DNA of 36,318 bases, taken from positions 1 to 36,318 of the forward strand of contig NKIB01015365.1 in NCBI GenBank assembly GCA_002256025.1, written 5' to 3'. Origin of the DNA: Asterionella formosa. Taxonomy: Eukaryota. Numbering within the stretch: position 1 is the first letter of the stretch; each line of letters starts with the position of its first letter. The notes beneath the pieces are model-generated. The model saw only the letters and a list, made by a program, of their open reading frames with translations, did not search any database and had not been told where the DNA came from. A program made the position numbers and the translations under genes. Shown here piece by piece: positions 3 through 31,204 of the stretch.

Positions 3-1187
3 ATGTTGACAGAACTCAGCCCCGAGACTTATGAAAAATATGTTGTTTATGAAGGGAACAACAAGGTCCTATATGTTAGGATGATCAAGGCATTATATGG
101 CATGTTACAGTCATCATTATTATATTATAAGAAATTTCGGAAGGATATTGAGTCAATTGGATTCAAGGTAAACCCATATGATCCATGTGTTGCAAATCGC
201 ATTGTTAATGGCAAACAGCACACAGTTACTTGGCACGTAGACGATTTGAAATCAAGTCACGTGTACAGCAAAGTGAATGATCAATTTTTGGAATGGCTCA
301 AAAAGAAATACGCTTCTGACGAAATTGGTGAAGTCAAGGTCATGCGTGGAAAGAAGCATGATTATTTGGCTATGACGCTAGATTACTCTCTTCCAGGAGT
401 GTTGAGGGTGGACATGACCAAATATGTGAAATCAATGATTGAAGGTGTTGGAAAATTCCCATGGACAGATAAATTGTTCACAGTTGATACAAAATCAAAG
501 AAGCTTGAATATGAAAAAGCAAAAATATTTCATACTTTTGTTATGAAAGGAATGTTCCTATGTAAGTGAGGAAGACAGGACATTCAACCGGGAATTGCAT
601 TTCTGGCAACCCGAACTACCCAACCGAATGAAGGCGATTGGGAAAAATTAGTCAAGATCATGAATTTCTTGAAAGCAACTCAGAACGAGGTTGCATCTAT
701 GAGTGCTGATGACACTCAGAGCATTAAATGGTACGTTGATGCGGCGTTTGCAGTGCACAAAGATTTTAAAAGTCACACAGGAGCTACAATGTCACTTGGA
801 AACGGAATTATCTGTTCTATGTCTACAAAACAGAAAGTGAACACTAGAAGTTCGACTGAAGCAGAATTGGTTGGTGTCGATGACATCATATCAAAGGTGT
901 TGTGGACGAAATTATTTATTGCAGCACAAGGACACAAGGTGACTACGAATGTCATTTACCATGACAACACTAGCGCAATGAAGCTAGAAGCAAATGGAAA
1001 AGCAAGTTCAGGAAAACGCACGCGACATTTCAACATCAAGTATTTTTATATTACTGATCTTATTGAAAGAAAGGAAGTACAAATCAAGTACTGTCCAACG
1101 GATGCAATGTTAGCAGACTACATGACGAAACCACTGGTTGGAACGAAATTTATTCATTTTCGTCAGCAAATTATGGATTCAAAGTGA
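3..1187 (+). pseudogene. copia pol (RT-RNase H) interrupted by an in-frame TGA at 567-569
   Basis: ORFs 3..569 and 660..1187 share one frame. Reading through the stop gives FLCK*GRQDIQPGIAFLATR, matching the usual xKRxRPDI copia motif, so the stop is probably CGA>TGA. Confidence 0.85.
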
Positions 1188-3399: not shown

Positions 3400-5108
3400 T
3401 TATGGTAAAGAGCTGCTGCTTATATCATTACTTCGCAGCAATCGATTCTGAATTCTTGCGACTCCAGCCCAAGGTTCCCACAAGTAAAGTGAATGTTGGT
3501 GAGAATAGCAGTACTTCCTCCTTGTCAACCATTCAGGTAGGAGTTCGTCATCAGTACCTCCCACTTTGGCAATCAAATATGTAGCTAGGTCAATCTCGAA
3601 TTTCGCGATCTTTTCTGCAAGCTCGATATGACCGCCCACTCCAGCTAGATCTGAAGGGCAATACCCATCTGAGTCTGGACCAATCCATGCAAATTCAATC
3701 TCATTGCGTAATTCCGTCACAAGCCACTCCACTATATCACCACGGCCTCGCTGAGCCGCCTTATGAAGGGCACCGTGTCCATTGGCATTCACTATGCTCA
3801 TCTTACAACCGATTGCTTTTAGCCACTCTATTGTTTCCAACCGAACACCTTCACCTTGGGCACACCACAGAACAGCGTTACAGCCAAACGTATTCGGCAT
3901 GTGCACATTACAACCTTGGTTGTGTAAAAATTTCATAACTTTCAAATGTCCTTGCCAAGAAGCCCATCCAAAGGCCGTTGTGCCGTCTGCAGTCGATGCG
4001 TCAAGAGCAGCATTGCAATTTTGAACAAGATATTGGACAACATGTAAATGCCCATTTCTGGCTGCCCAATGTAACGCAGTACGGCCCGAAAACGATCGCT
4101 TTCCACGCTGTCCTAGATTTGGATCACATGCACAGTGCTGAATTAGATATTGTACAACATTCAAGTGCCCTGATCCAGCAGCCCAATGTAGAGCCGATGC
4201 TCCTCTTCGATCAAAAGAATGAGCAACGCCTTGAGAAGCCTGGAAAATCGCTAGCGTCAGAGTCAACGTGGTCATTCCTTTTATCCCCATTCCACACCAC
4301 CTACCTCTACTTCTTGCCTTAAGGATTCCAAGTCTCCTTGTCTTGCCCACTCATAAATTAGCTCCTCATCAGTAGTCCTCTGTGTCGGTATTGTTTGGGT
4401 TACAATGGACGAACACCTGGGTTGTTGCAAGATATATGGTATAATGGGCAACACTAGTCGTTCAAATGCTGCGGAAGCCGCTGCTACGGAATGCTCTGAC
4501 GCGTGCTCACTCTGTTTGTGCCACCATAATCCCTTCTCGCCTGTCGTAAGTGAAAGGGTAATGATACGTCCAATGAGCTAGCATTACTACAGTAGTATTA
4601 GGATGTAACAATCACCTCACCGTACCGTACCTTTGCACCACTTGATACATTGCGGGCAAGGAAGTCTACCGGAGTCTCTTAATGCGGTTGCTCTTTCTGG
4701 TGTTACGATACATATAATACCGGATGCATTCGAGCGTACATCGTGGCAAAGCCCAGCCTCTCGGCAGATGTCTTCCAGCACGGAACATACAAGAGTGGCC
4801 AAATCAAAAGGACAGGCAATTGTTCTTTCCAATCCCAAATCAGACACAACGGTGATTTCAATATCCCCCCTCTTTCGTTTCCGCTGTTGATGAAAGAACG
4901 CGAGAGCTGCTTTGACTTCGATATCGTGAGGCTTTCCTTCGTTTGCACTCAACGGATGTTGTAAGTTATTAGGAAAGGAAACGCTTGACTCTGCTAGCTT
5001 GAATAGCTCCTGTGTTGCTCCTTCGGTGCGCTGGTCTTCAGTTCCTCCGCATACTTGAAGCAGCGCGCGGTGGACAGCTTGTGCCACTTGGTCCCGGTCG
5101 ACAGCCAT
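3400..5108 (-). CDS. C2H2 zinc finger + ankyrin-repeat protein; exons 5108-4631, 4540-4305, 4239-3400 (517 aa)
   Basis: Splicing reconstitutes CPQCIKWCKG|EKGLWWHKQSEH (C2H2). About 6 ankyrin repeats (GASALHWAAGSGH, GRTALHWAARNGH, GTTAFGWASWQGH, GHGALHKAAQRG). Canonical GT-AG sites keep the frame. Confidence 0.85.
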
Positions 5109-9295: not shown

Positions 9296-10575
9296 TGGTT
9301 GCTCGCATCCCACCATATGTGGAAGGAATGGAATCTAACACAAAGAGAATAGTGCTCACATTGTACAGTCGGAATACAATGACCATACTATAGCACTTTA
9401 TGACAAGTAAAACACGGGGTGTCTGAGAGATGGTCACTTGTTTCAACAAACAGTTTGCTTCCATCCCATCCCATATCATTCCATGCCTAGTAATACATAT
9501 TGCAAAGCTTGCCATTCATTCATACAGTTGAACTCAAACATGCTGTTGAATTTTAGAGTGACAAAAACAATTTCAATGACATTGATTCTGGATCTGCCTC
9601 TCTTTCAAGTGAAAATGTATACCATGCCATCTTTCTCCTCCTGCTGGATACTACCAGGTACCAGCAGCAATTGGCACCAGCACCAAACACCAACTACCAG
9701 CTGTTTCTCCTCCACCTGTGCTACCACAAGTCAAAATCTATCCATCACCCACTTCCTGGGAACTGATTAATTTATCATTGTTGCTCGTTCAGGACCATTT
9801 TGAACCTTTCTGAATTTTCATTTCGACTACCCAAGAAAAAAGTGTAAGTTGACAATTTTTAAAGAACAATCATTGACAATTTTCCACATGAATTTTCCAC
9901 TTAACCATTTTCTTTTTCACTATTTATTCTTCTCCCTGTTCTTCATTGTCACTTCTTACCTTTCATTTTCCATTTCATACTTTGGTTGCTTAAAAAATTG
10001 AGTGTCGAATTTTTCGACATTTGTTACAATCTTTTTCGTGTGATAATTTTTTTTTGCTCTGTGCATTTTTGATGGCTGTGGCTGGTGCATATCGATTTCT
10101 AATATTTCACTTCAATGTACAGTAATCCTGACGTTGCTCGATGGTCACTGCCAAAACCTAGAATTGGACTGCCGAAAAATCTATTAACAGAGATACCAAA
10201 AATTACTTAGACACCCTCAGTTCTCATCGAAAAGCAAGACGATAGCTGGTGGGGATTGCTTTTGTGGAATGGCCCGCCAACAAAAGCATTTGTTTATGTA
10301 GTATATGAGTATATACTGTATACATTTTCATGTAAATAGCTGTTTATTCACCTGTATATAATCATGATTGATTTTATTGTTAAAGATTCGCTCGACCATC
10401 ATCCCCACCGGTCATCGACACTGCGGCTGGTTATAATTACGTATACACTGAGTTTTAAGACTATCTTGGATAGCCTGGACTCCTCCTCTGTCTGATGCTG
10501 CCTAAATGTATGGAAAATTCAGCAATCTACAAAAGGCTTCATCATATCTGTTAAACACTCGGTGCGACTACCGGT

Positions 10576-11931
10576 ATGTCATCTGGAACACTTCCTTCGG
10601 CATCATATCATAGAGCGCAGTCGCTAGGCTCTGGCACTTTTGGTTCAGTTGTTGCCGTTTACAATGACGATGGAGAAGAGTTCGCTTTGAAACTTTTTCT
10701 CGATGAGGAGAGCGACGATGAAGAAGATAATCAGGATGTGGGCATGAATTTGGGAGCTCTTCGAGAGATTTCCATTCTCAGACTGTTGAGAGGCGAAAAC
10801 AAACACCAGAATATTGTGGAAATGGTTGATATTCAGGAGGGTTTTGGTGAAGACGAGGATGGTGGAGGTACCGCTGGGGTTCTCGCCATTGCTATGCCTC
10901 TTTACAAGGACGGAACGCTTGGCAACGCAATTGATAAAGGTTGGCTGCAGTCCAAAAAAATGAAAGTAAAAATTGCTCATGGGATACTTTGTGGCCTTGC
11001 ATATCTGCATGACAATGGTATTATCCATAGAGACCTTAAAGCTGACAACATCATGGTGATCCAGGAGGAGGATGGTAATCTGAAGCCAGTTTTGATTGAC
11101 TTCAGTCTAGCCAAACTTGTTGATAGTACGATGTATGGAAGGACATTGTTTGACAGCCATGGAGACACCGAGCCTACGCATACTACTCAAGTGGGATCTG
11201 CTACCTACACGGCCCCAGAAATCTTGGCCGATGAACCTTATGGTCTCAAGGTGGATCTATGGAGCGTCGGCGTAATTTTTTTGGAAATCCTTCAGAATCA
11301 CACGTTGATTGCAGAAAAGAATCGCGAGGCAGAAAGGCTGATTGTACAAGCTAAAGAATCATTGCCAGATCAGCCATTTGCGAATCTAATCCGAGGATTA
11401 TTAAAATTAGACCCCTGCAAACGACTATCGGCTCGAGGAGCTCTGGAGTCTTCTCTCTTCGCCAAATTTGGTTTACTAGTCCCACCTGTCAAGCTATTAG
11501 AAATCGAGGTAGCCTTGCCAATCGAAAATGGTGACGAGGATGAAAACACGCAACAGGTTATGAAAGCCCAAAAACCCATGCTATCCAAGGTCCTTGAGAG
11601 ACGCATTAAAACGATTCGAAAGATTTGCCACGAAATTGATGCCCAACATCCCATGACAGCGTTAACAGCTTTTTGTTACTGTGAAAGATTCTTTCAGCTT
11701 GATGATGAAATTGATAACCAAAGTAAGTCACAAGGTCTTTTGGATTGCGTTCTACTTGCAAGTAAGTATTGGGAGTTGGAATTGCCAAGCTTTCGAGATT
11801 TAGAGGGAAATGGTAGCTTTTCCAATTGGTCTATTGAAGAATATGAAGACAATGAAGCGACCATATGGATGATGATGGATTATTGTTTGCTCCCTCGTGG
11901 AGTTCCTCACTTTCTTTCCAAGCACATCTAA
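10576..11931 (+). CDS. CDK-like Ser/Thr kinase with a C-terminal cyclin-box-like domain (451 aa, intronless)
   Basis: Kinase motifs GSGTFG, ALK, GMNLGALREISIL (PSTAIRE-helix equivalent), HRDLKADN, DFS, YTAPE and DLWSVG. The C-terminus TAFCYCERFF...CVLLASKYWE...EATIWMMMDYCL resembles a cyclin N-box. Confidence 0.9.
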   Translation: MSSGTLPSASYHRAQSLGSGTFGSVVAVYNDDGEEFALKLFLDEESDDEEDNQDVGMNLGALREISILRLLRGENKHQNIVEMVDIQEGFGEDEDGGGTAGVLAIAMPLYKDGTLGNAIDKGWLQSKKMKVKIAHGILCGLAYLHDNGIIHRDLKADNIMVIQEEDGNLKPVLIDFSLAKLVDSTMYGRTLFDSHGDTEPTHTTQVGSATYTAPEILADEPYGLKVDLWSVGVIFLEILQNHTLIAEKNREAERLIVQAKESLPDQPFANLIRGLLKLDPCKRLSARGALESSLFAKFGLLVPPVKLLEIEVALPIENGDEDENTQQVMKAQKPMLSKVLERRIKTIRKICHEIDAQHPMTALTAFCYCERFFQLDDEIDNQSKSQGLLDCVLLASKYWELELPSFRDLEGNGSFSNWSIEEYEDNEATIWMMMDYCLLPRGVPHFLSKHI

Positions 11932-12210
11932 ACTAGTCATTCGTACTCCTCTCAGCACATTTTTGTTTTGATCCCGTAAATGGTTTTGATTCAGAATAAG
12001 ATAGTTGGTGTACAATGCTTGTGACCATTGATGTTTATCTTCTTTACACCCCAATTCCGTAGGCAATATATTCCGGGTTTCCATTGGGGCATCTCATTAC
12101 CTAGGCTTGTTTGTCGTGCTCATAGGAGATATTAGATCAAACAAGACCCAGCCAGTTACAAAAATGCAGAACAAGAAAAGTATAAATGAGGTGATAGTAT
12201 TGATTTTCAA

Positions 12211-13307: not shown

Positions 13308-14643
13308 TCACTTGTAATCATTCCTCATGTTGCTGGATGCTGAGTTTGAGGCATGGCGCAACAGCAAGTCGATTGCAGCGAGCATGAAAGAATGTGGGTC
13401 AGTCCCATTTGGTGTTTGACCTCTTAGATCTTGGAATGTTCCTTGGACGCCCAATTGCGCCAGGGAGTTGAAATAAGTGTTATCATTTGCACTCATTATT
13501 CTGGCTTGATGATAGTGACTGCTTTCGGTATTCCTAATGTTTTGTTGCTGGTTCGTGATGAAGGCATTTTGCAAAGATGGTGTCCCATTTTTGTGGGTCA
13601 AACGATCAATTACGTTGCTCATCCTCTGATGGCGATCAGTACGGGTATCATTGTCAACATTGAGGGTGACTGAAAATGGGGAAGGGCCTTGAGCATACGA
13701 ACCGGCAATGTCCCCTGGTGACACAGTAAAGGCAGGTGATGGCTGAAGCTCCGTTAACTGAGTAGGCCCTGTGGGGGGACCAATCATGTTTCCAATACCT
13801 GACCTGTGTCCAGATTGGAACTGATACTTTTGTTTCGAGGAGGTTAAAGCCCTGCGTGTTGCTGCAGCAGTTACAGATCGCATCCTTCCCATGAGTGTCT
13901 TGTTGTCCTTTCGAAACAAGTCGTGACCAAAGATAATCTCTCTCTTGCGATGGATGCGGTCAGGAGATACAGTGACCTGACGAAAGCCCCATCTGTAAAG
14001 CTTTCGAGTGAAGCTGGCGAACTTGCCTTCGCGGAAGAACATAGGCAAAAGTTCTTTGACAAGGTCATCCTTGCTCCGGATGATAAAAGCTCGGCCATCC
14101 ATGGTCCAAGAGACAGTCGCGTGCTCAATTTCCTTGCCACAATCAGTCGCGTATTCGCGGTCGACGTATGTTAGCATGAGCATGAGCTGTAGTGAACAAG
14201 TTGTGGCAGACGAACAAAAGAAGTTGAGTTAGATCAAGGCAGATGGGAGGTGGAGGGCGTTATTGTGCCTTCCGTACCTTTTCGGGAAACGTTAGAGTTG
14301 CATGGTGATCTCTGACGAACTCAGGTAGATCTGAGGAGTGGGTGGCATATTTGTGCAAGCCGAGGAGGAAAGCACTAGTGGGTGATGAGCCTGGAGGATA
14401 TGGGCTGGATTCTCGCACCTGCAGCGGATCTCGACCCCCTTGCCCAATGTCAACGACATGGTTCGATTCTGGTGACAAGGTCGAAACAGCGCTGAATGAA
14501 GGCATTAACTGGATATTCACCGTTTGATTCACTCCTGAAAACTGTTCTTTATCATGGACTGAACTAATAGCTGTACCGGTTGATCCTCTACTAATGTGCG
14601 ACCTATCTTGGAGTCGTCCTTCGACAGGGCGCTCGTTTTGCAT
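13308..14643 (-). CDS. Heat-shock-factor (HSF-type DNA-binding) transcription factor; exons 14643-14278, 14186-13308 (414 aa)
   Basis: The spliced HSF DBD reads FPEK|LMLML...VSWTMDGRAFII...LLPMFF...KFASFTRKLYRWGFRQ...FGHDLFRK. GT-AG intron of 91 nt. Confidence 0.9.
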
Positions 14644-23460: not shown

Positions 23461-26400
23461 ATGCCGCTATCCAAGAAAGAAGCCTTAACTTGGTGCTCTG
23501 ATGCCCTTCATGATCTCCTGGGATTTACTGATTCTGCATTGGCCTCCTTTTTGGTAGCATTGGCACGGAAATCATCCAGCACGCCGCAATCGATTCTGCA
23601 AGAGTTGTGCGACGTGAATGCACCACAGGATAAGCTTCAGAGCTTTGCCAGGCAACTGCATGACCAGTGCAAACCATTTCCAAATAAGGGTGAGACATCA
23701 TTGTTCAACAAAAGGAAAACAAACGCCGACTGGGTCCAACAAGCTCAAAAATACAAACTGTTGGACGACGACGTGGACGATAACGCTCCAACTAAAGTCA
23801 AACCTTTTTCCAAAAAAAGAGAACGCAAGGAAATGAAGCAACGTAGTCGAGTGCGAGACGATGAAGGTAGCGATGATAGCGTCACTGAAATCAAGCGAAC
23901 TTCGCATGAAGAACGACGACGCAAGCGTAAAGAGGGGAATGAGTCTCGACTCACAGAAGAAGAAAGAAACGCTCTCGATCGAGAAAAAGACTTGCAAGAA
24001 AGGGATGAGTTTGTACAGCGCATGCTGGCAAAAGATGACACTAAAACAAAGCAAAAAGTTGTATCACCAGAATCGCGGAAGCAGTCTGACGCAGAGCAAC
24101 GGCTTGCACGTGGCGAAACGGTTGTCGACGAAACAGGCGAAGAAATGACACTGGATCGGCTACGCGAGCAATCAAGGCGAGCATACTTGAAGAAACGAGA
24201 GGAGCAGCAAGTCAATCTCCTAGAGCTGGAGTTGCAGGAAGAGGAAGAACTATTTCGGGGACAAAAACTGACAAAAGCAGAGAGGAAACGGATTGAATTG
24301 GGCAAACAAATTTTGACCATGGTAAAGGGACGAGATGATGATATAAATCAAGGGACTGATGGGTTATATCGACTGCCCGATGAATATAATGAAAAGCATA
24401 CCAAGTCAGATCAAGACAAGGCATTGTTAAAGAATAGATACCATGATAGCAAAGGAGAAAAGACAGAGCAAGAGGCGTGGGAAGAGTCTCAAACGCAAAA
24501 AGCGGTTGGCGGCAGGAGTAAGAAAAGGGATACAAATGAAAAAGAATACGACCTTGTATTTGACGATCAGATCGCGTTTGTCATGCAAGATACAAAAAAG
24601 GGTTACGATCGTCGCCGAAAGAAAGAAGCACCTATGGTCAAAGACGAGAGGCCCGATCCTTTGGAACCTCGATTGACAGAGCACCAAAACATATTAGTAG
24701 GCCGTAAGAAGCTTCCCGTGTTTCCTTATAGAGAAGAATTTCTGGCTGCAGTTAAGGACCATCAAGTATTGGTATTGGTGGGTGAGACCGGTTCTGGTAA
24801 GACTACTCAGATACCTCAATATCTCCATGAGATTGGGTACAGTGAGTTGGGAAAAATTGGGTGCACACAACCTCGTCGTGTTGCAGCAATGAGTGTGGCT
24901 GCGCGTGTTGCAATCGAGATGAACGTAAAACTGGGTCATGAAGTGGGCTATTCCATTCGCTTTGAAAATTGTACTAGCCCCAAAACTATTATTCAATATA
25001 TGACAGATGGTATGCTGCTTAGAGAGATTTTGACAGAACCAGATTTGGCAGGCTACTCTTGTCTCGTTATAGATGAGGTGAGTGTGCATACACTACTGCT
25101 TCTGAATTTTATTATTGTCTCACTCCATTCTACAATATAGGCACACGAGCGAACACTTCACACAGATATTCTATTTGGATTGGTGAAAGACATAGTACGA
25201 TTCCGCAGCGATTTGAAGGTGATTATCAGTAGCGCTACCCTTGATGCAGAGAAATTCTCCAAGTATTTCGATGATTGCTCTATCTTTATGATTCCTGGTC
25301 GAATGTTTCCTGTAGATATCTATTACACCAAGTCGCCCGAAGCTGACTATGTGGATGCTGCTGTCGTGACAGTCCTTCAAATTCATGTCTCGCAACCTCT
25401 AAATGGTGACGTACTTGTGTTCTTAACCGGCCAGGAAGAAATTGAAACGGCTGCTGAGGTGCTGGCTCTTCGAACGAAAAACCTGGGATCGCGCATTAAA
25501 GAATTGATCATTTGCCCAATTTATGCAAATCTTCCACCAGAGCAACAGGCCAAGATTTTTGAACCTACTCCGGCGGGGGCCAGAAAAGTTGTTTTGGCTA
25601 CGAATATAGCTGAGACAAGTTTGACCATCAACGGAATATGTTATGTCATCGATGCAGGCTTCGCCAAGCAAAAATCGTTCAATGCCAAATCTGGAATGGA
25701 GTCTCTCATTGTTACCCCCATTTCCCAGGCTGCGGCCAACCAAAGGGCGGGACGTGCTGGTCGTACACAGCCGGTAAGTAACATGTTGCATGAGGTGAAT
25801 GAATGAGATCTAGCCATTGGTTATTGACACATTTGTCTACTTGTTCAAAGGGGAAATGCTTTCGCCTCTACACTGCTTATTCGTTTCAGCACGAAATGGA
25901 TCCCAATACTGTACCGGAGATTCTGCGAACCAATATGGGGAACGTAGTTCTAATGTTGAAGAGTTTAGGAATCAACGATTTGATGAATTTTGATTTTATG
26001 GATCGACCACCGGCCCAGACTTTGATTGTGGCCTTGGAACAACTCTATGCACTTGGAGCCCTAAATGATAAAGGGGAACTGACCAAGTTGGGTAGACGAA
26101 TGGCAGAGTTTCCACTGGATCCAATGCTAAGCAAGAGTCTGCTTGCTTCGGAGAAATACAAATGTACGTCGGAGATCTTGTCGATGGTTGCAATGCTTTC
26201 TCTTGGCGCTTCTGTTTTTTATCGACCAAAAGATAAGGCGGTCCACGCTGACACTGCTCGATTGAACTTTGCTCGAGGTGGAGGTGGTGATCATATGGCG
26301 TTGATGCGCTGTTACGTAGAATGGGCTGCAATGGACTACAGTACACAGTATTGCCAAGAGAATTACATTCAGATTCGAAGTATGAGGAAAGCTCGTGATA

Positions 26401-26780
26401 TTCGAGAACAATTGGAAGGTCTATGTGATCGTGTGGAGATTGATAAGAACGTGTCGAATCCAGATGATATGGATGCTATTCTGAAAGCAATCACATCTGG
26501 TTTCTTTTACAATATCGCTAAGTTGGCGAGATCTGGTGAATATCAAACAATAAAGCAACCTAAAACTGTCTACATTCATCCGAGCTCCGTCTTGTCGAAA
26601 GAGGAAGAACCGCCTGCATGGCTTTGCTTTTTCGAGCTTGCCTTCACAACAAAAGAGTACATGCGATCAGTCTGCCCGATCAAGCCTGAATGGCTGCTCG
26701 AGTGCGCCCCTCATTACTACAACAGCGAAGAGGTAGAAGAGGCCCGATCCAGGAAGATGCCAAAGAATAGGCATAAATAA
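23461..26780 (+). CDS. DHX16: Spliceosomal DEAH-box RNA helicase DHX16/Prp2; exons 23461-25077, 25141-25773, 25851-26780 (1059 aa)
   Basis: [30 protein letters not shown] split by intron 1, [31 protein letters not shown], and HA2/OB C-terminus. The N-terminus ([21 protein letters not shown]) is typical of DHX16. Confidence 0.95.
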
Positions 26781-26866: not shown

Positions 26867-28394
26867 TTATTTCTTGATTTCCAGTTCGAGAACAACCGGG
26901 CAGTGGTCGCTACCAATGATTGCAGGCAGTGTGTAGCTATCACGAACAAAAACGTTGTTCGCGTTGTTGTCATCAAAGAAGGAAGGAGAACAAATGAAAT
27001 AGTCCAACCGAAGCCCCTTATTTGGTTCGCGATTTCCAGCTCGTTGACTCCAATAGGTGTAATGACCTTTCGCCTCTGGATGAAGTTTACGGAAGGCGTC
27101 GACAAACCCAGAATCAAGTTGAGCCTGAAAGGAGTCCCGTTCCTGTTGAGTGACACCAGCTTGTGTCGCCAAATGTTTTGCGCCATCGTTCCATACTTCG
27201 AGGTTGGTATGTGCCACGTTCAAGTCTCCAGCCCAAATAACAGGAAGGTTTTTCTTTTGGTGATATGCAAGAAAGTCCTTGTCCCATTGTTTCGTGCGGT
27301 AATCAAGACGTTCTAGTTTCTGTCCAGAGTTGGGAACATAGACATTTGTCAAGCTAAAACGTGGAAATTCCAGAGTAATTACGCGCCCTTCCTTGTCATG
27401 TTCGTCCTTCCCTATATCGAAAGTCACTTGTTTTGGAACCAAATTGGCAACATCAATAGGAGCTTCTACAGACGCTGTCGATGAAGCAGTGTCACCTTTC
27501 TTAACAGTAAAGAATCCGTCCAACTTGCTTTGATGCCTTTTGACTCCCTTGACACCACTCCGCCGCCTAACAAATACTGCAGTACCCGAATACCCCTTTT
27601 TCGAGGTTGAGCAAGAATAGTGTGCATCATAGCCTTCATTTTCCAATAAATGTCCCCGAATCTTGAGCTTTGGATCATCCACGTGGATGTCTTGTAGTTT
27701 GGTTTCTTGTAGCATCAAGACGTCGAGATTGTGATCTTGGACCAAGTTGGAAAGAGCATGGGGATGGTTCTTCAATACGGCACGAAGACCAGCGACGTTC
27801 CAGGATGCGATCTTGAAGGCTGCAAAACGTGTCAGATTAGGAGCAAATCAGAACACCTACACAAACACATCAAAGTGAACAATTTGTTTTCCATCACTCA
27901 CTGTACGAATCCTTGTGGTCATTTGCATTCCACAGTTTGGGGAGGTCATCGCGCTGCGTCAAGACTTGATGTTTGGGCGCAGCAGCTTTCTTTGATTTTT
28001 GTTTGCTGTCGACCTCGTCATTGGTGGAATCATTATTCTCGATTTTTACGTGGGCAATACTAATGTCCGAAGCGCCTGCTGTGTCAACAACAGCTTCCGC
28101 ATTAGCCGCACTTCGGTCTTTCTTGCTTCGAGTCTTGCCATTTTTCATTTTCTTGGGAGGAGATTCGCCGTCTGTTGAGGCGCTCATCTCCCGTTTGGTC
28201 CTGGAAGCATGACGGGCACTTTCCAATCGTGGCATAATGGAGTACCGGTAGGTGATGTGAACTCTCGGACAATGACTAGAAAACAGTCTAGTTGGAACTG
28301 CAATAAACAACGAATTCACAAACTGTTGCCGACGTGCAGTCCACAAAAGAATAAGAGCTTGGGAGGCGAATTGGTGACCGAATAGTAGTCTCAT
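26867..28394 (-). CDS. AP endonuclease / exodeoxyribonuclease III (APE1/ARP-like); exons 28394-27902, 27819-26867 (481 aa)
   Basis: FKIASWNVAGLRA, LQETK, GYSGTA, EGR, YVPNSG, GDLNVAH, YTYWS, RLDY and SDHCP are all present. Confidence 0.93.
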
Positions 28395-30091: not shown

Positions 30092-31204
30092 TCACAAACG
30101 TGGATTTTGCACGAAGTGATTCACTACATGCGTTAGGACAGCACCTATAGGGGCTTCAATTTTCAGACAATCCAACCCTTCAATCTCTGCCCTTGTTTGG
30201 CCCACGTTTAAAATAGCAATGGGAATACCATTGTTTGCGGCAGTCCGTACGAATCGAAACGCAGAATGAACCGCAAGAGATGTTCCAATGCACAATAATC
30301 CATCGGATGCGTCAACGGCAGCTCGACATCGTGCCACTCTGTGCTTGGGTACTGAGTCTCCAAAGAACACTACGTCTGGCTTAAAGAATCCACCACATTG
30401 AGGACAGGCTGGAACACCAATATTGGAATAATCATCTCGGTTCACGTTCCCATCGCCATCTGGTCGACTATCGCTGGATTTTTTTTCGGACATTACTTCA
30501 CGCAGCCAATCCTCATTCATAACTTCCAATTGATTATGAAATTCCTTTCTCCCCGTTGTACTACCACACTGCATACATTTGAGACGGGAGGTTCGTCCAT
30601 GCAATTCCGTCACGTGTTGAGCCCCTGCTCGATGATGTAGATGATCAACATTTTGAGTGATGATAGTCAATTGTCGTTGACCAGTGCTGGTTGTCCAATC
30701 TTCTTGTCGATTGGGTTGGTAGTAGTCAAGAGAATCTTCGAAGCGGACTCCAATACGTTTCATTTTCTCTAGATTCACTAGGGCATTGTGACCAGTCTTT
30801 TTTGTCGCAGCGTTGTTGAAATGAGATTCGCGCTTTTGTACATTAGGTGCACCACAAGATTCAGATAAAAAAGCGATCTAACTTACATTGGGTTTTGATA
30901 AATCGAAGTCTCTCCAGCCCGCCATTGCTCGACCCCAATATCTCTGCCTACTAGAAGCAGATCGCATAAATTCGTCGTGAATCATGGGCTTATGGCCCTT
31001 GTGATAGGAACCATCGCTACCTCGATAGTCTGGAATTCCAGATTCAGTCGAGAGACCAGCTCCAGTCAGAGTCAATATATTTTGCTTCCCACTCATCCAT
31101 TCTATCAATTCTGTACCCTTGGCCACCAGCTCGACAGTCGAAAGGAGAGTTTGGGGATTCGGAGGACGTTCTGAAACTTCGTGTACGGAAGTTCGCGGAA
31201 CAAT
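30092..31204 (-). CDS. SIRT4: Class II sirtuin (SIRT4-like NAD+-dependent deacylase), 5' end in gap; exons >31204-30887, 30796-30092
   Basis: LTGAGLSTESGIPDYRG, RQRYWGR, KPN|TGH, ITQNVDHLH, ELHG, CxxC...RPDGD...CxxC, KPDVVFFGD and GTSLAVHSAFRF. The frame stays open up to the N gap. Confidence 0.92.

Follow-up and report, generated by a model that had tools for sequence, protein, structure and literature searches.

A conserved kinase family of diatoms with a predicted single cyclin box in the same chain

Introduction

By the textbook rule, a cyclin-dependent kinase (CDK) is controlled by a separate, unstable cyclin, and natural versions that place both parts in a single chain test how much of this arrangement is needed. 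Here we describe a gene of Asterionella formosa, located at positions 10576..11931 on the forward strand of a 36,318-nt stretch of DNA (assembly GCA_002256025.1, contig NKIB01015365.1, positions 1 to 36,318; the whole stretch is called the window below), which encodes a protein kinase followed by a tail with the predicted fold of a cyclin box. A preliminary description, made from the sequence alone and without database searches, had proposed an apparent natural CDK-cyclin fusion that activates itself. The family to which the gene belongs is conserved throughout the diatoms, a major group of primary producers, and a relative in a giant-virus metagenome-assembled genome (MAG) links it to virus-host biology.

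The gene and its RNA

The coding sequence (10576..11931, + strand) is a single intronless open reading frame (ORF) running from ATG to stop, with 451 amino acids in its translation. RNA-library contigs from three studies are colinear with the locus, contain no joints and span both the kinase and the tail; taken together, their ends bracket the ORF and give an approximate extent of 10456..12057 (+) including the 5' and 3' untranslated parts, contigs of this kind being able neither to prove transcription nor to fix the true ends of an RNA. A contig from a polyA library (X1, 1444 nt) matches 10459-11902 exactly (0 differences, 0 gaps), two others from one and the same sample cover 10456-11956 (X5, 1502 nt) and 10478-12057 (X4, 1577 nt), and a fourth (X3, 1528 nt) covers 10300-11692 plus a 305-nt piece. 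In relatives, complete MMETSP transcripts likewise code for a protein with these two domains, and the start (MSSGxLP) as well as the C-terminal end are conserved across 40 aligned relatives. The gene is one ORF with one unspliced RNA, and the earlier proposal of a single chain from a single transcript is upheld by contigs that span both domains.

Two perfect in-frame GTAAGT hexamers lie inside the coding region of the cyclin box (11723-11728 and 11762-11767) and were considered as marks of introns. They were ruled out as such, since the RNA contigs cross both sites without a joint and neither therefore serves as a splice donor in these contigs.

The N-terminal end of the protein (residues 1-11, 10576-10608) carries a motif, MSSGxLPxxxYHR, that hardly varies among 40 diatom relatives (M1, S3, G4, L6 and P7) and is modelled as disordered, with a predicted local distance difference test (pLDDT) value of about 35. 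The motif might serve as a degron, for docking or as a target of modification.

The kinase domain

Residues 11-295 (10606..11460, +) form a protein kinase domain (Pfam Pkinase, E 6.1e-46). Among the 40 relatives the invariant positions include K39, E64, H151-R152-D153, K155, N158, D175-F176-S177, H202-T203, P214-E215, D227 and R283, with DFG replaced by DFS. The catalytic loop HRDLKADN (residues 151-158; 11026..11049, +) is intact, and because the catalytic residues are invariant the kinase looks catalytically active as far as its sequence tells. The activation segment extends from DFS to APE (residues 175-215; 11098..11220, +) and contains T203 (11182-11184, +), ten residues before the Ala of APE, which is invariant in the 40 relatives and at least 90% conserved in a wide alignment. 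We take this spacing to be that of Thr160 in CDK2, and R63, R152 and K180 presumably occupy the places of the three Arg of CDK2 that hold the phosphorylated Thr. The glycine loop reads GTYG in most relatives and GTFG in the window protein, and with Phe at position 22 the Tyr targeted by Wee1-type kinases is absent from this protein.

Between beta3 and alphaC lies an acidic insert whose length varies within the family alignment (residues 42-56; 10699..10743, +; pLDDT <50 at 45-50). It is followed by the alphaC helix region MNLGALREISILRL (residues 57-70; 10744..10785, +; modelled helix 59-70), the equivalent of the PSTAIRE helix, which aligns with GIPSTTIREISILKEL of the Plasmodium CDK PfPK5. 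Here E64 is invariant and R63 nearly invariant in the 40 relatives, and the P-S-T part of PSTAIRE is not retained. When the family profile was compared with PDB sequences, LGALREISILRLL of the family paired with STTIREISILKEL of PfPK5 and LGALREISIL with STTIREISIL, so that the PSTAIRE-equivalent helix of the preliminary description was recovered. The alignment is striking over the N-lobe, where YHRAQSLGEGTYGSV...LGALREISILRLL...HENIVELVDV faces YHGLEKIGEGTYGVV...STTIREISILKEL...HSNIVKLYDV of PfPK5. In this profile search PfPK5 was the best match (1.6e-30), followed by a CDPK (8.3e-30) and CDK9 (about 3e-28). The PDB search with the single sequence gave GCN2 (2.2e-21) and PfPK5 (5.2e-21), with CDK9, DCLK1 and CaMK1 scoring alike, and the Foldseek matches of the full model are a mixture of DCLK1, CDPK, CDK9, CaMKII and CDK2.

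A second insert, acidic and glycine-rich, lies between beta4 and beta5 (10840-10885, residues about 89-104). It is a family-specific loop with pLDDT <50 whose core, G-A-G-T-x-G, is conserved, G96 and G101 being nearly invariant.

The linker and the cyclin-box tail

The linker (residues 296-337; 11461..11586, +) begins with the conserved motif VPPVxxxDIxxALP, in which A313 and P315 are nearly invariant, and continues into an acidic and basic disordered part. Its mean pLDDT is 92 at residues 301-310 and <50 at 319-334, and in the model the conserved motif may route the chain towards the N-lobe.

The tail proper (11587..11874, +) is predicted to adopt a single cyclin-box fold with helices at residues 338-353, 359-372, 387-399, 406-409 and 420-433. 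At the sequence level the assignment is marginal. Residues 324-426 match Cyclin_N (Pfam PF00134; E 1.2e-5, model positions 15-114 of 127) with 25.4 bits when the full chain is scanned and 28.6 bits when the tail is taken by itself, the gathering score being 23. Six of 16 tails match Cyclin_N at E<=1, and no other Pfam family is matched by more than one tail. The cyclin-box motif is Y-x-D-R-F-L; the window protein has the best Cyclin_N score, in our reading because its Y-C-E-R-F-F resembles that motif, most relatives having Y-x-x-Q-M. A second cyclin box was not found, there being no Cyclin_C Pfam match and the protein ending 18 residues after helix 5. The "cyclin" of the preliminary description has accordingly to be reduced to one cyclin box, which stands, and does not extend to a whole cyclin.

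The residues conserved in the tail are in keeping with this register. R343, T361, C391, A395, E400, F415 and E427 are invariant in the 40 relatives, and A365, A395, E400 and E427 are kept in an 11-sequence wide alignment that includes Amorphochlora and Amoebophrya. K397 (11764..11766, +), which stands in A-S-K-Y-W-E between the invariant A395 and E400, is the counterpart of the Lys by which a cyclin box contacts the CDK and is Lys or Arg family-wide; E427 (11854..11856, +), in D-N-E-A-T-I, is the counterpart of the CDK-contacting Glu and is invariant in both alignments. These two residues, noted earlier as the Lys of ASK and the Glu of NEA, were found where they had been placed, as were the acidic linker and the strings quoted from the translation. 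Structural alignment matches positions 36..145 of the tail model with 201..309 of the cyclin A2 chain, a mapping that by our reckoning brings R343, K397 and E427 to R211, K266 and E295 of cyclin A, give or take one or two residues. We take R211 to be a buried Arg and K266 and E295 to be the CDK-contacting residues of the cyclin box.

The fold is much clearer than the sequence. An AlphaFold2 model of the tail built from 16 sequences contains five helices, with pLDDT 74.6 overall and 85-94 per 10-residue block over the core. Comparison of this model with 48,161 PDB representatives by VIA-align returned exclusively cyclin-fold proteins at ranks 1-45, and ranks 1-11 are taken by genuine CDK-binding cyclins, with the alignment lying on the first box, which is the box that contacts the CDK. 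The Foldseek rows that can be named from their titles are cyclins C, T1, H, E1, A, K and Y, p25, TFIIB/Brf and the Rb pocket, and the remaining listed rows belong to Pol II/III initiation complexes. Language-model features in the Atlas gave Cyclin_N in 26 of 30 matches (score 0.92). On these models the tail is the five-helix fold of a first cyclin box, marginal in sequence and clear in fold, in agreement with the cyclin fold that the preliminary description had read from the letters. Among PDB sequences, neither phmmer with the tail nor the tail profile retrieved a cyclin; the best hits, a Dps protein (E 0.87) and SH3BP5 (E 0.013), were matched on the charged linker and the first helices, and both were taken as chance.

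Distribution among diatoms and other protists

The 120 best relatives listed have 434-607 amino acids, and in 119 of these the match extends over at least 93% of the query. All named sources among them are diatoms, both centric and pennate, including Seminavis robusta, Mayamaea pseudoterrestris, Thalassiosira exigua, Synedra, Cylindrotheca, Nitzschia, Amphora, Fragilaria crotonensis, Skeletonema menzelii, Attheya, Gedaniella, Fistulifera solaris and Coscinodiscus wailesii. The architecture suspected from one sequence therefore recurs in full-length relatives throughout the diatoms. In public records they bear generic or mistaken names ("serine/threonine protein kinase", "protein tyrosine kinase", "SPS1-related...", "Cdk9"), and none of these mentions a cyclin. 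A published description of this diatom family was not found in the full-text literature searched, which leaves out most subscription journals.

A profile of 16 tails, run against 1.84 billion representative proteins, gave only 95 hits at E<=0.001. A Pfam scan covered 30 of these 95, namely the weaker, longer ones and six mid-range ones, and found Pkinase N-terminal to the tail in 18; 11 were short (112-210 amino acids) without a family match, and one (191 amino acids) had a weak Cyclin_N match only. These 12 short hits may be fragments or free-standing tails. Among the scanned hits longer than 195 amino acids that match any family, all 18 carry the upstream kinase domain.

Weaker hits of the tail profile outside the diatoms come from the chlorarachniophyte Amorphochlora amoebiformis and from two Amoebophrya genomes, and in these both domains align. 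A maximum-likelihood tree of 32 rows, which is unrooted and has several long branches, unites the 24 diatom-type rows in one clade (support 98/98) with the window protein nested inside. As judged from sequence comparison, the two-domain layout is conserved across diatoms and occurs in Amorphochlora, in Amoebophrya and in a giant-virus MAG.

Relatives in giant viruses

Scanning IMG/VR with the full-length alignment yielded one gene of a giant-virus MAG (L001, 1501-2757 on a 22.7-kb contig), whose putatively viral product of 418 amino acids (P0257) is colinear with residues 1-439 over kinase and tail (30% identity, E 7e-50). In the unrooted tree P0257 joins two environmental proteins, P0190 and P0188, and the three fall outside the diatom clade (100/98 and 98/94). 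With the tail alignment, the viral contigs of IMG/VR gave 54 pattern matches, of which 0 were confirmed.

Structural comparison extends the likeness. Of 50 BFVD rows of giant-virus proteins, 18 superpose on the model over its full length (TMq 0.58-0.67), kinase-only matches reaching at most 0.51 in either library. The best row is Cedratvirus A11 (A0A1M7XV71; 440 amino acids, TMq 0.67, TMt 0.68, root-mean-square deviation 4.3), and others are Orpheovirus A0A2I2L4W4, Pithovirus LCPAC302 A0A481Z6Z1 and Marseillevirus LCMAC103 A0A481YU06. Many kinases of 440-690 amino acids encoded by Pithovirus, Orpheovirus, Cedratvirus and Marseillevirus match the model over both domains, and some of them are annotated as cyclin-dependent kinases. 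Since whole-chain superposition occurs repeatedly, the same two-domain arrangement is predicted repeatedly, which suggests that these giant viruses commonly encode kinases equipped with a tail of their own, helical or cyclin-like. The likeness to the diatom protein is a predicted structural match along the whole chain, the C-terminal domain in the viral kinases being putatively helical or cyclin-like; apart from P0257, however, they have no detectable sequence relation to the diatom tail.

Packing of the tail against the kinase

The full-length AlphaFold2 model, built from 40 sequences, has a predicted template modelling score (pTM) of 0.84, with 60 of 451 residues at pLDDT <50; the ordered part of the kinase makes up only about 60% of the chain. 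As this pTM is reached in spite of the disordered residues, we infer a confident placement of the tail on the kinase. Together with the conserved Lys/Arg and Glu, the pTM points to a tail that would dock on the alphaC helix of its own kinase. Among the 46 PDB rows listed for the full model, 19 are CDK2 chains, all of them from CDK2-cyclin A crystal entries (18 by title) and none monomeric, a composition that hints at an alphaC-in conformation of the model. The whole-chain match to the 18 giant-virus proteins and the confidently modelled linker motif also bear on the packing. Mean-field covariation over 175 sequences (effective number 103) gave a mixed and noisy picture, in which the alphaC-tail pairs L59-E402 and A61-L393 are present.

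Comparison with known kinase-cyclin systems

Four CDKs of Phytophthora infestans with C-terminal Cyclin_N and Cyclin_C domains, for example PITG_21617, have been described and confirmed by reverse transcription PCR, with relatives in other oomycetes, Paramecium, Tetrahymena and Theileria (Judelson and Ah-Fong, 2010, PMC3019232). According to that report, all of these fusions carry an Asp-to-Asn change in subdomain VIb and are presumed inactive, and no such fusion was present in the two diatom genomes then available. The layout of the window protein thus has published precedents in CDKs with integral cyclin domains from oomycetes, ciliates and Theileria (PMC3019232). Both groups consist of one chain with the kinase N-terminal and the cyclin part C-terminal, and both come from protists of the stramenopile, alveolate and rhizarian (SAR) assemblage. 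The oomycete and ciliate fusions, however, have strong Cyclin_N and Cyclin_C matches and the VIb Asp-to-Asn change, whereas the diatom family has one marginal Cyclin_N match, no Cyclin_C and an intact HRD Asp (D153, invariant). The diatom family differs from these fusions (PMC3019232) on every defining point but domain order. In the protist fusions on record a whole cyclin is attached to a kinase that looks dead, while this family looks active and carries one box that would touch the kinase; an active-looking kinase with a single box makes it the most minimal natural kinase-plus-cyclin-box unit compared here.

With the CDK-cyclin heterodimers (CDK2-cyclin A2, CDK4-cyclin D3 and CDK6-viral cyclin; PDB 9qcv, 3g33, 1jow and 1g3n), the diatom protein shares a PSTAIRE-type helix, the T-loop Thr and a tail with the first-box fold in which the Lys and Glu are kept. 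It differs from them in being one polypeptide with one box, no Cyclin_C, no CMGC insert or CMGC Arg, and DFS in place of DFG, and its tail is too diverged from the solved cyclins for a profile to find any of them. The single-box activators p25/p35 of CDK5 and Spy1/RINGO of CDK2 are separate proteins and score below true cyclins in the comparison with the tail. In the literature searched, natural kinase-cyclin fusions were found in the 2010 report alone, the others being engineered. Engineered fusions such as Cdc13-Cdc2 of fission yeast and cyclin D-Cdk4/6 reportedly show that a linked cyclin and CDK can be active and even drive the cell cycle; they differ from the diatom protein in being man-made, in containing a full cyclin and in having the opposite domain order. 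Diatoms themselves are described as having unusual cell-cycle control and diatom-specific cyclins, and seven unplaced "hypothetical CDKs" (hCDK1-7) are listed for Phaeodactylum, with divergent cyclin-binding motifs (Huysman et al., 2010, PMC2872877).

Interpretation and alternative explanations

We contend, with moderate confidence, that the gene is a member of a conserved protist Ser/Thr kinase family in which an intact CDK-derived kinase is joined to one very diverged cyclin box and activated by it in cis. The tail would pack on the N-lobe and alphaC helix of its own chain, as the first cyclin box does on a CDK, and would keep alphaC in the active position, so that a separate cyclin would not be needed. 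The level of activity would be set by synthesis and destruction of the protein and would probably also depend on phosphorylation of T203. In relatives with Tyr at position 22, Wee1-type inhibitory phosphorylation is possible; the window protein has Phe there.

Several observations weigh against self-activation by a built-in cyclin box. On the side of the tail, Cyclin_N is matched at E<=0.01 by only 3 of 40 full-length relatives, the tail profile found no solved cyclin at E<=10 among PDB sequences, and the Foldseek E-values of the tail are 0.37 or worse. No canonical cyclin was evident among the 95 hits of the tail profile, the rows checked matching near the C-terminal end. R343 is lost in distant members, and the counterpart of the cyclin-box Asp, which we take to be the buried D240 of cyclin A, is not conserved. 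On the side of the kinase, the CMGC insert is missing, 25 profile positions (247 to 273) facing 58 residues of PfPK5 (200 to 259) where the match breaks, and the CMGC Arg of xYRAPE is replaced by Thr in the TYTAPE of both the protein and the family consensus. Moreover, CDPK, CaMK and DCLK1, which carry other C-terminal regulatory tails, score about equal to CDKs. Given the absence of insert and Arg and the similar scores of non-CDK kinases, "CDK" is a loose label: the N-lobe is CDK-like, with its ALREIS helix and T-loop Thr, and the "CDK" of the preliminary description holds only loosely. As to the packing, AlphaFold2 favours active kinase states, which makes the cyclin-bound-like conformation weak evidence, and the noisy covariation ranks pairs between C-lobe and tail (K128-Q382, V231-R348 and W229-L389) above those between alphaC and tail.

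In one alternative, which we find doubtful though it has to be taken seriously, the tail has the cyclin fold but serves a different purpose, for example docking of substrates or partners, localisation, or autoinhibition in the manner of CaMK, DCLK1 or CDPK, with a kinase that is intrinsically active or switched in some other way. Against it stand the best fold matches, which are true CDK-binding cyclins aligned on the first box; the conserved residues, which correspond to the Lys and Glu of cyclins that face the CDK; and the ALREIS helix of CDK type, which is what cyclins bind and which the kinase retains. An arrangement in which the tail does serve as a cyclin, acting in trans on a second copy in a head-to-tail dimer or on a different CDK, so that the protein would be both a kinase and a cyclin for others, seems unlikely to us. 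It would be permitted by the flexible linker of about 40 residues, disordered at 319-334, and partners could be sought among the several diatom CDKs with odd cyclin-binding motifs listed in the Phaeodactylum study (hCDK1-7, PMC2872877). The monomer model, however, already places the tail confidently, and the tail follows a kinase of the same chain in 18 of the 30 scanned hits; its presence in one chain with a kinase, without a canonical free cyclin among the hits, suggests co-evolution with its own kinase.

That the likeness to cyclins is due to chance, an unrelated helical bundle happening to score on Cyclin_N, would fit the marginal Pfam score, the few matching relatives, the lack of any cyclin in the profile search of PDB sequences and the weak Foldseek E-values. 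We nevertheless hold it to be very improbable, as the Pfam hidden Markov model, a structure comparison independent of Foldseek and the language-model features agree on the fold, Cyclin_N is the sole Pfam family found in more than one of the 16 tails, all of the first 45 ranks of the fold search are cyclin-fold proteins, and the register of the motifs (R343, A-S-K-x-x-E and E427) agrees. Least credible of all is an artefact of the gene model, by which two neighbouring genes or a gene with an intron would have been read as one ORF. The two GTAAGT hexamers in the tail coding region are what speaks for it, but RNA-library contigs pass through both without a joint, and many diatom genomes, as well as MMETSP transcripts that are complete, encode the same continuous protein.

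Beyond activation in cis by its own cyclin box, the gene could be placed in a wider and distinctly more tentative picture. The family may represent an old, SAR-wide lineage, carried also by giant viruses, in which a CDK lost the CMGC insert and captured one cyclin box, and so became independent of free cyclins and yet active. A step of the diatom cell cycle or of environmental signalling might then depend for its timing on transcription, proteolysis and T-loop phosphorylation alone, and viruses might impose a CDK-like activity without recourse to the cyclins of the host.

Neighbouring genes

None of the 15 ORFs scanned in the window is a cyclin gene, and the neighbours are ordinary eukaryotic genes. 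On the - strand they encode an ankyrin-repeat protein (3400-4290), a protein with an HSF-type DNA-binding domain (13308-14183), a member of the endonuclease/exonuclease/phosphatase family (26867-27715) and a Sir2-family deacetylase (30092-30763). On the + strand, three consecutive ORFs at 23461-26780 carry pieces of a DEAH-type RNA helicase (AAA_19/AAA_22, Helicase_C, and HA2 with OB_NTP_bind), and they probably belong to a single gene that short introns or frame changes interrupt.

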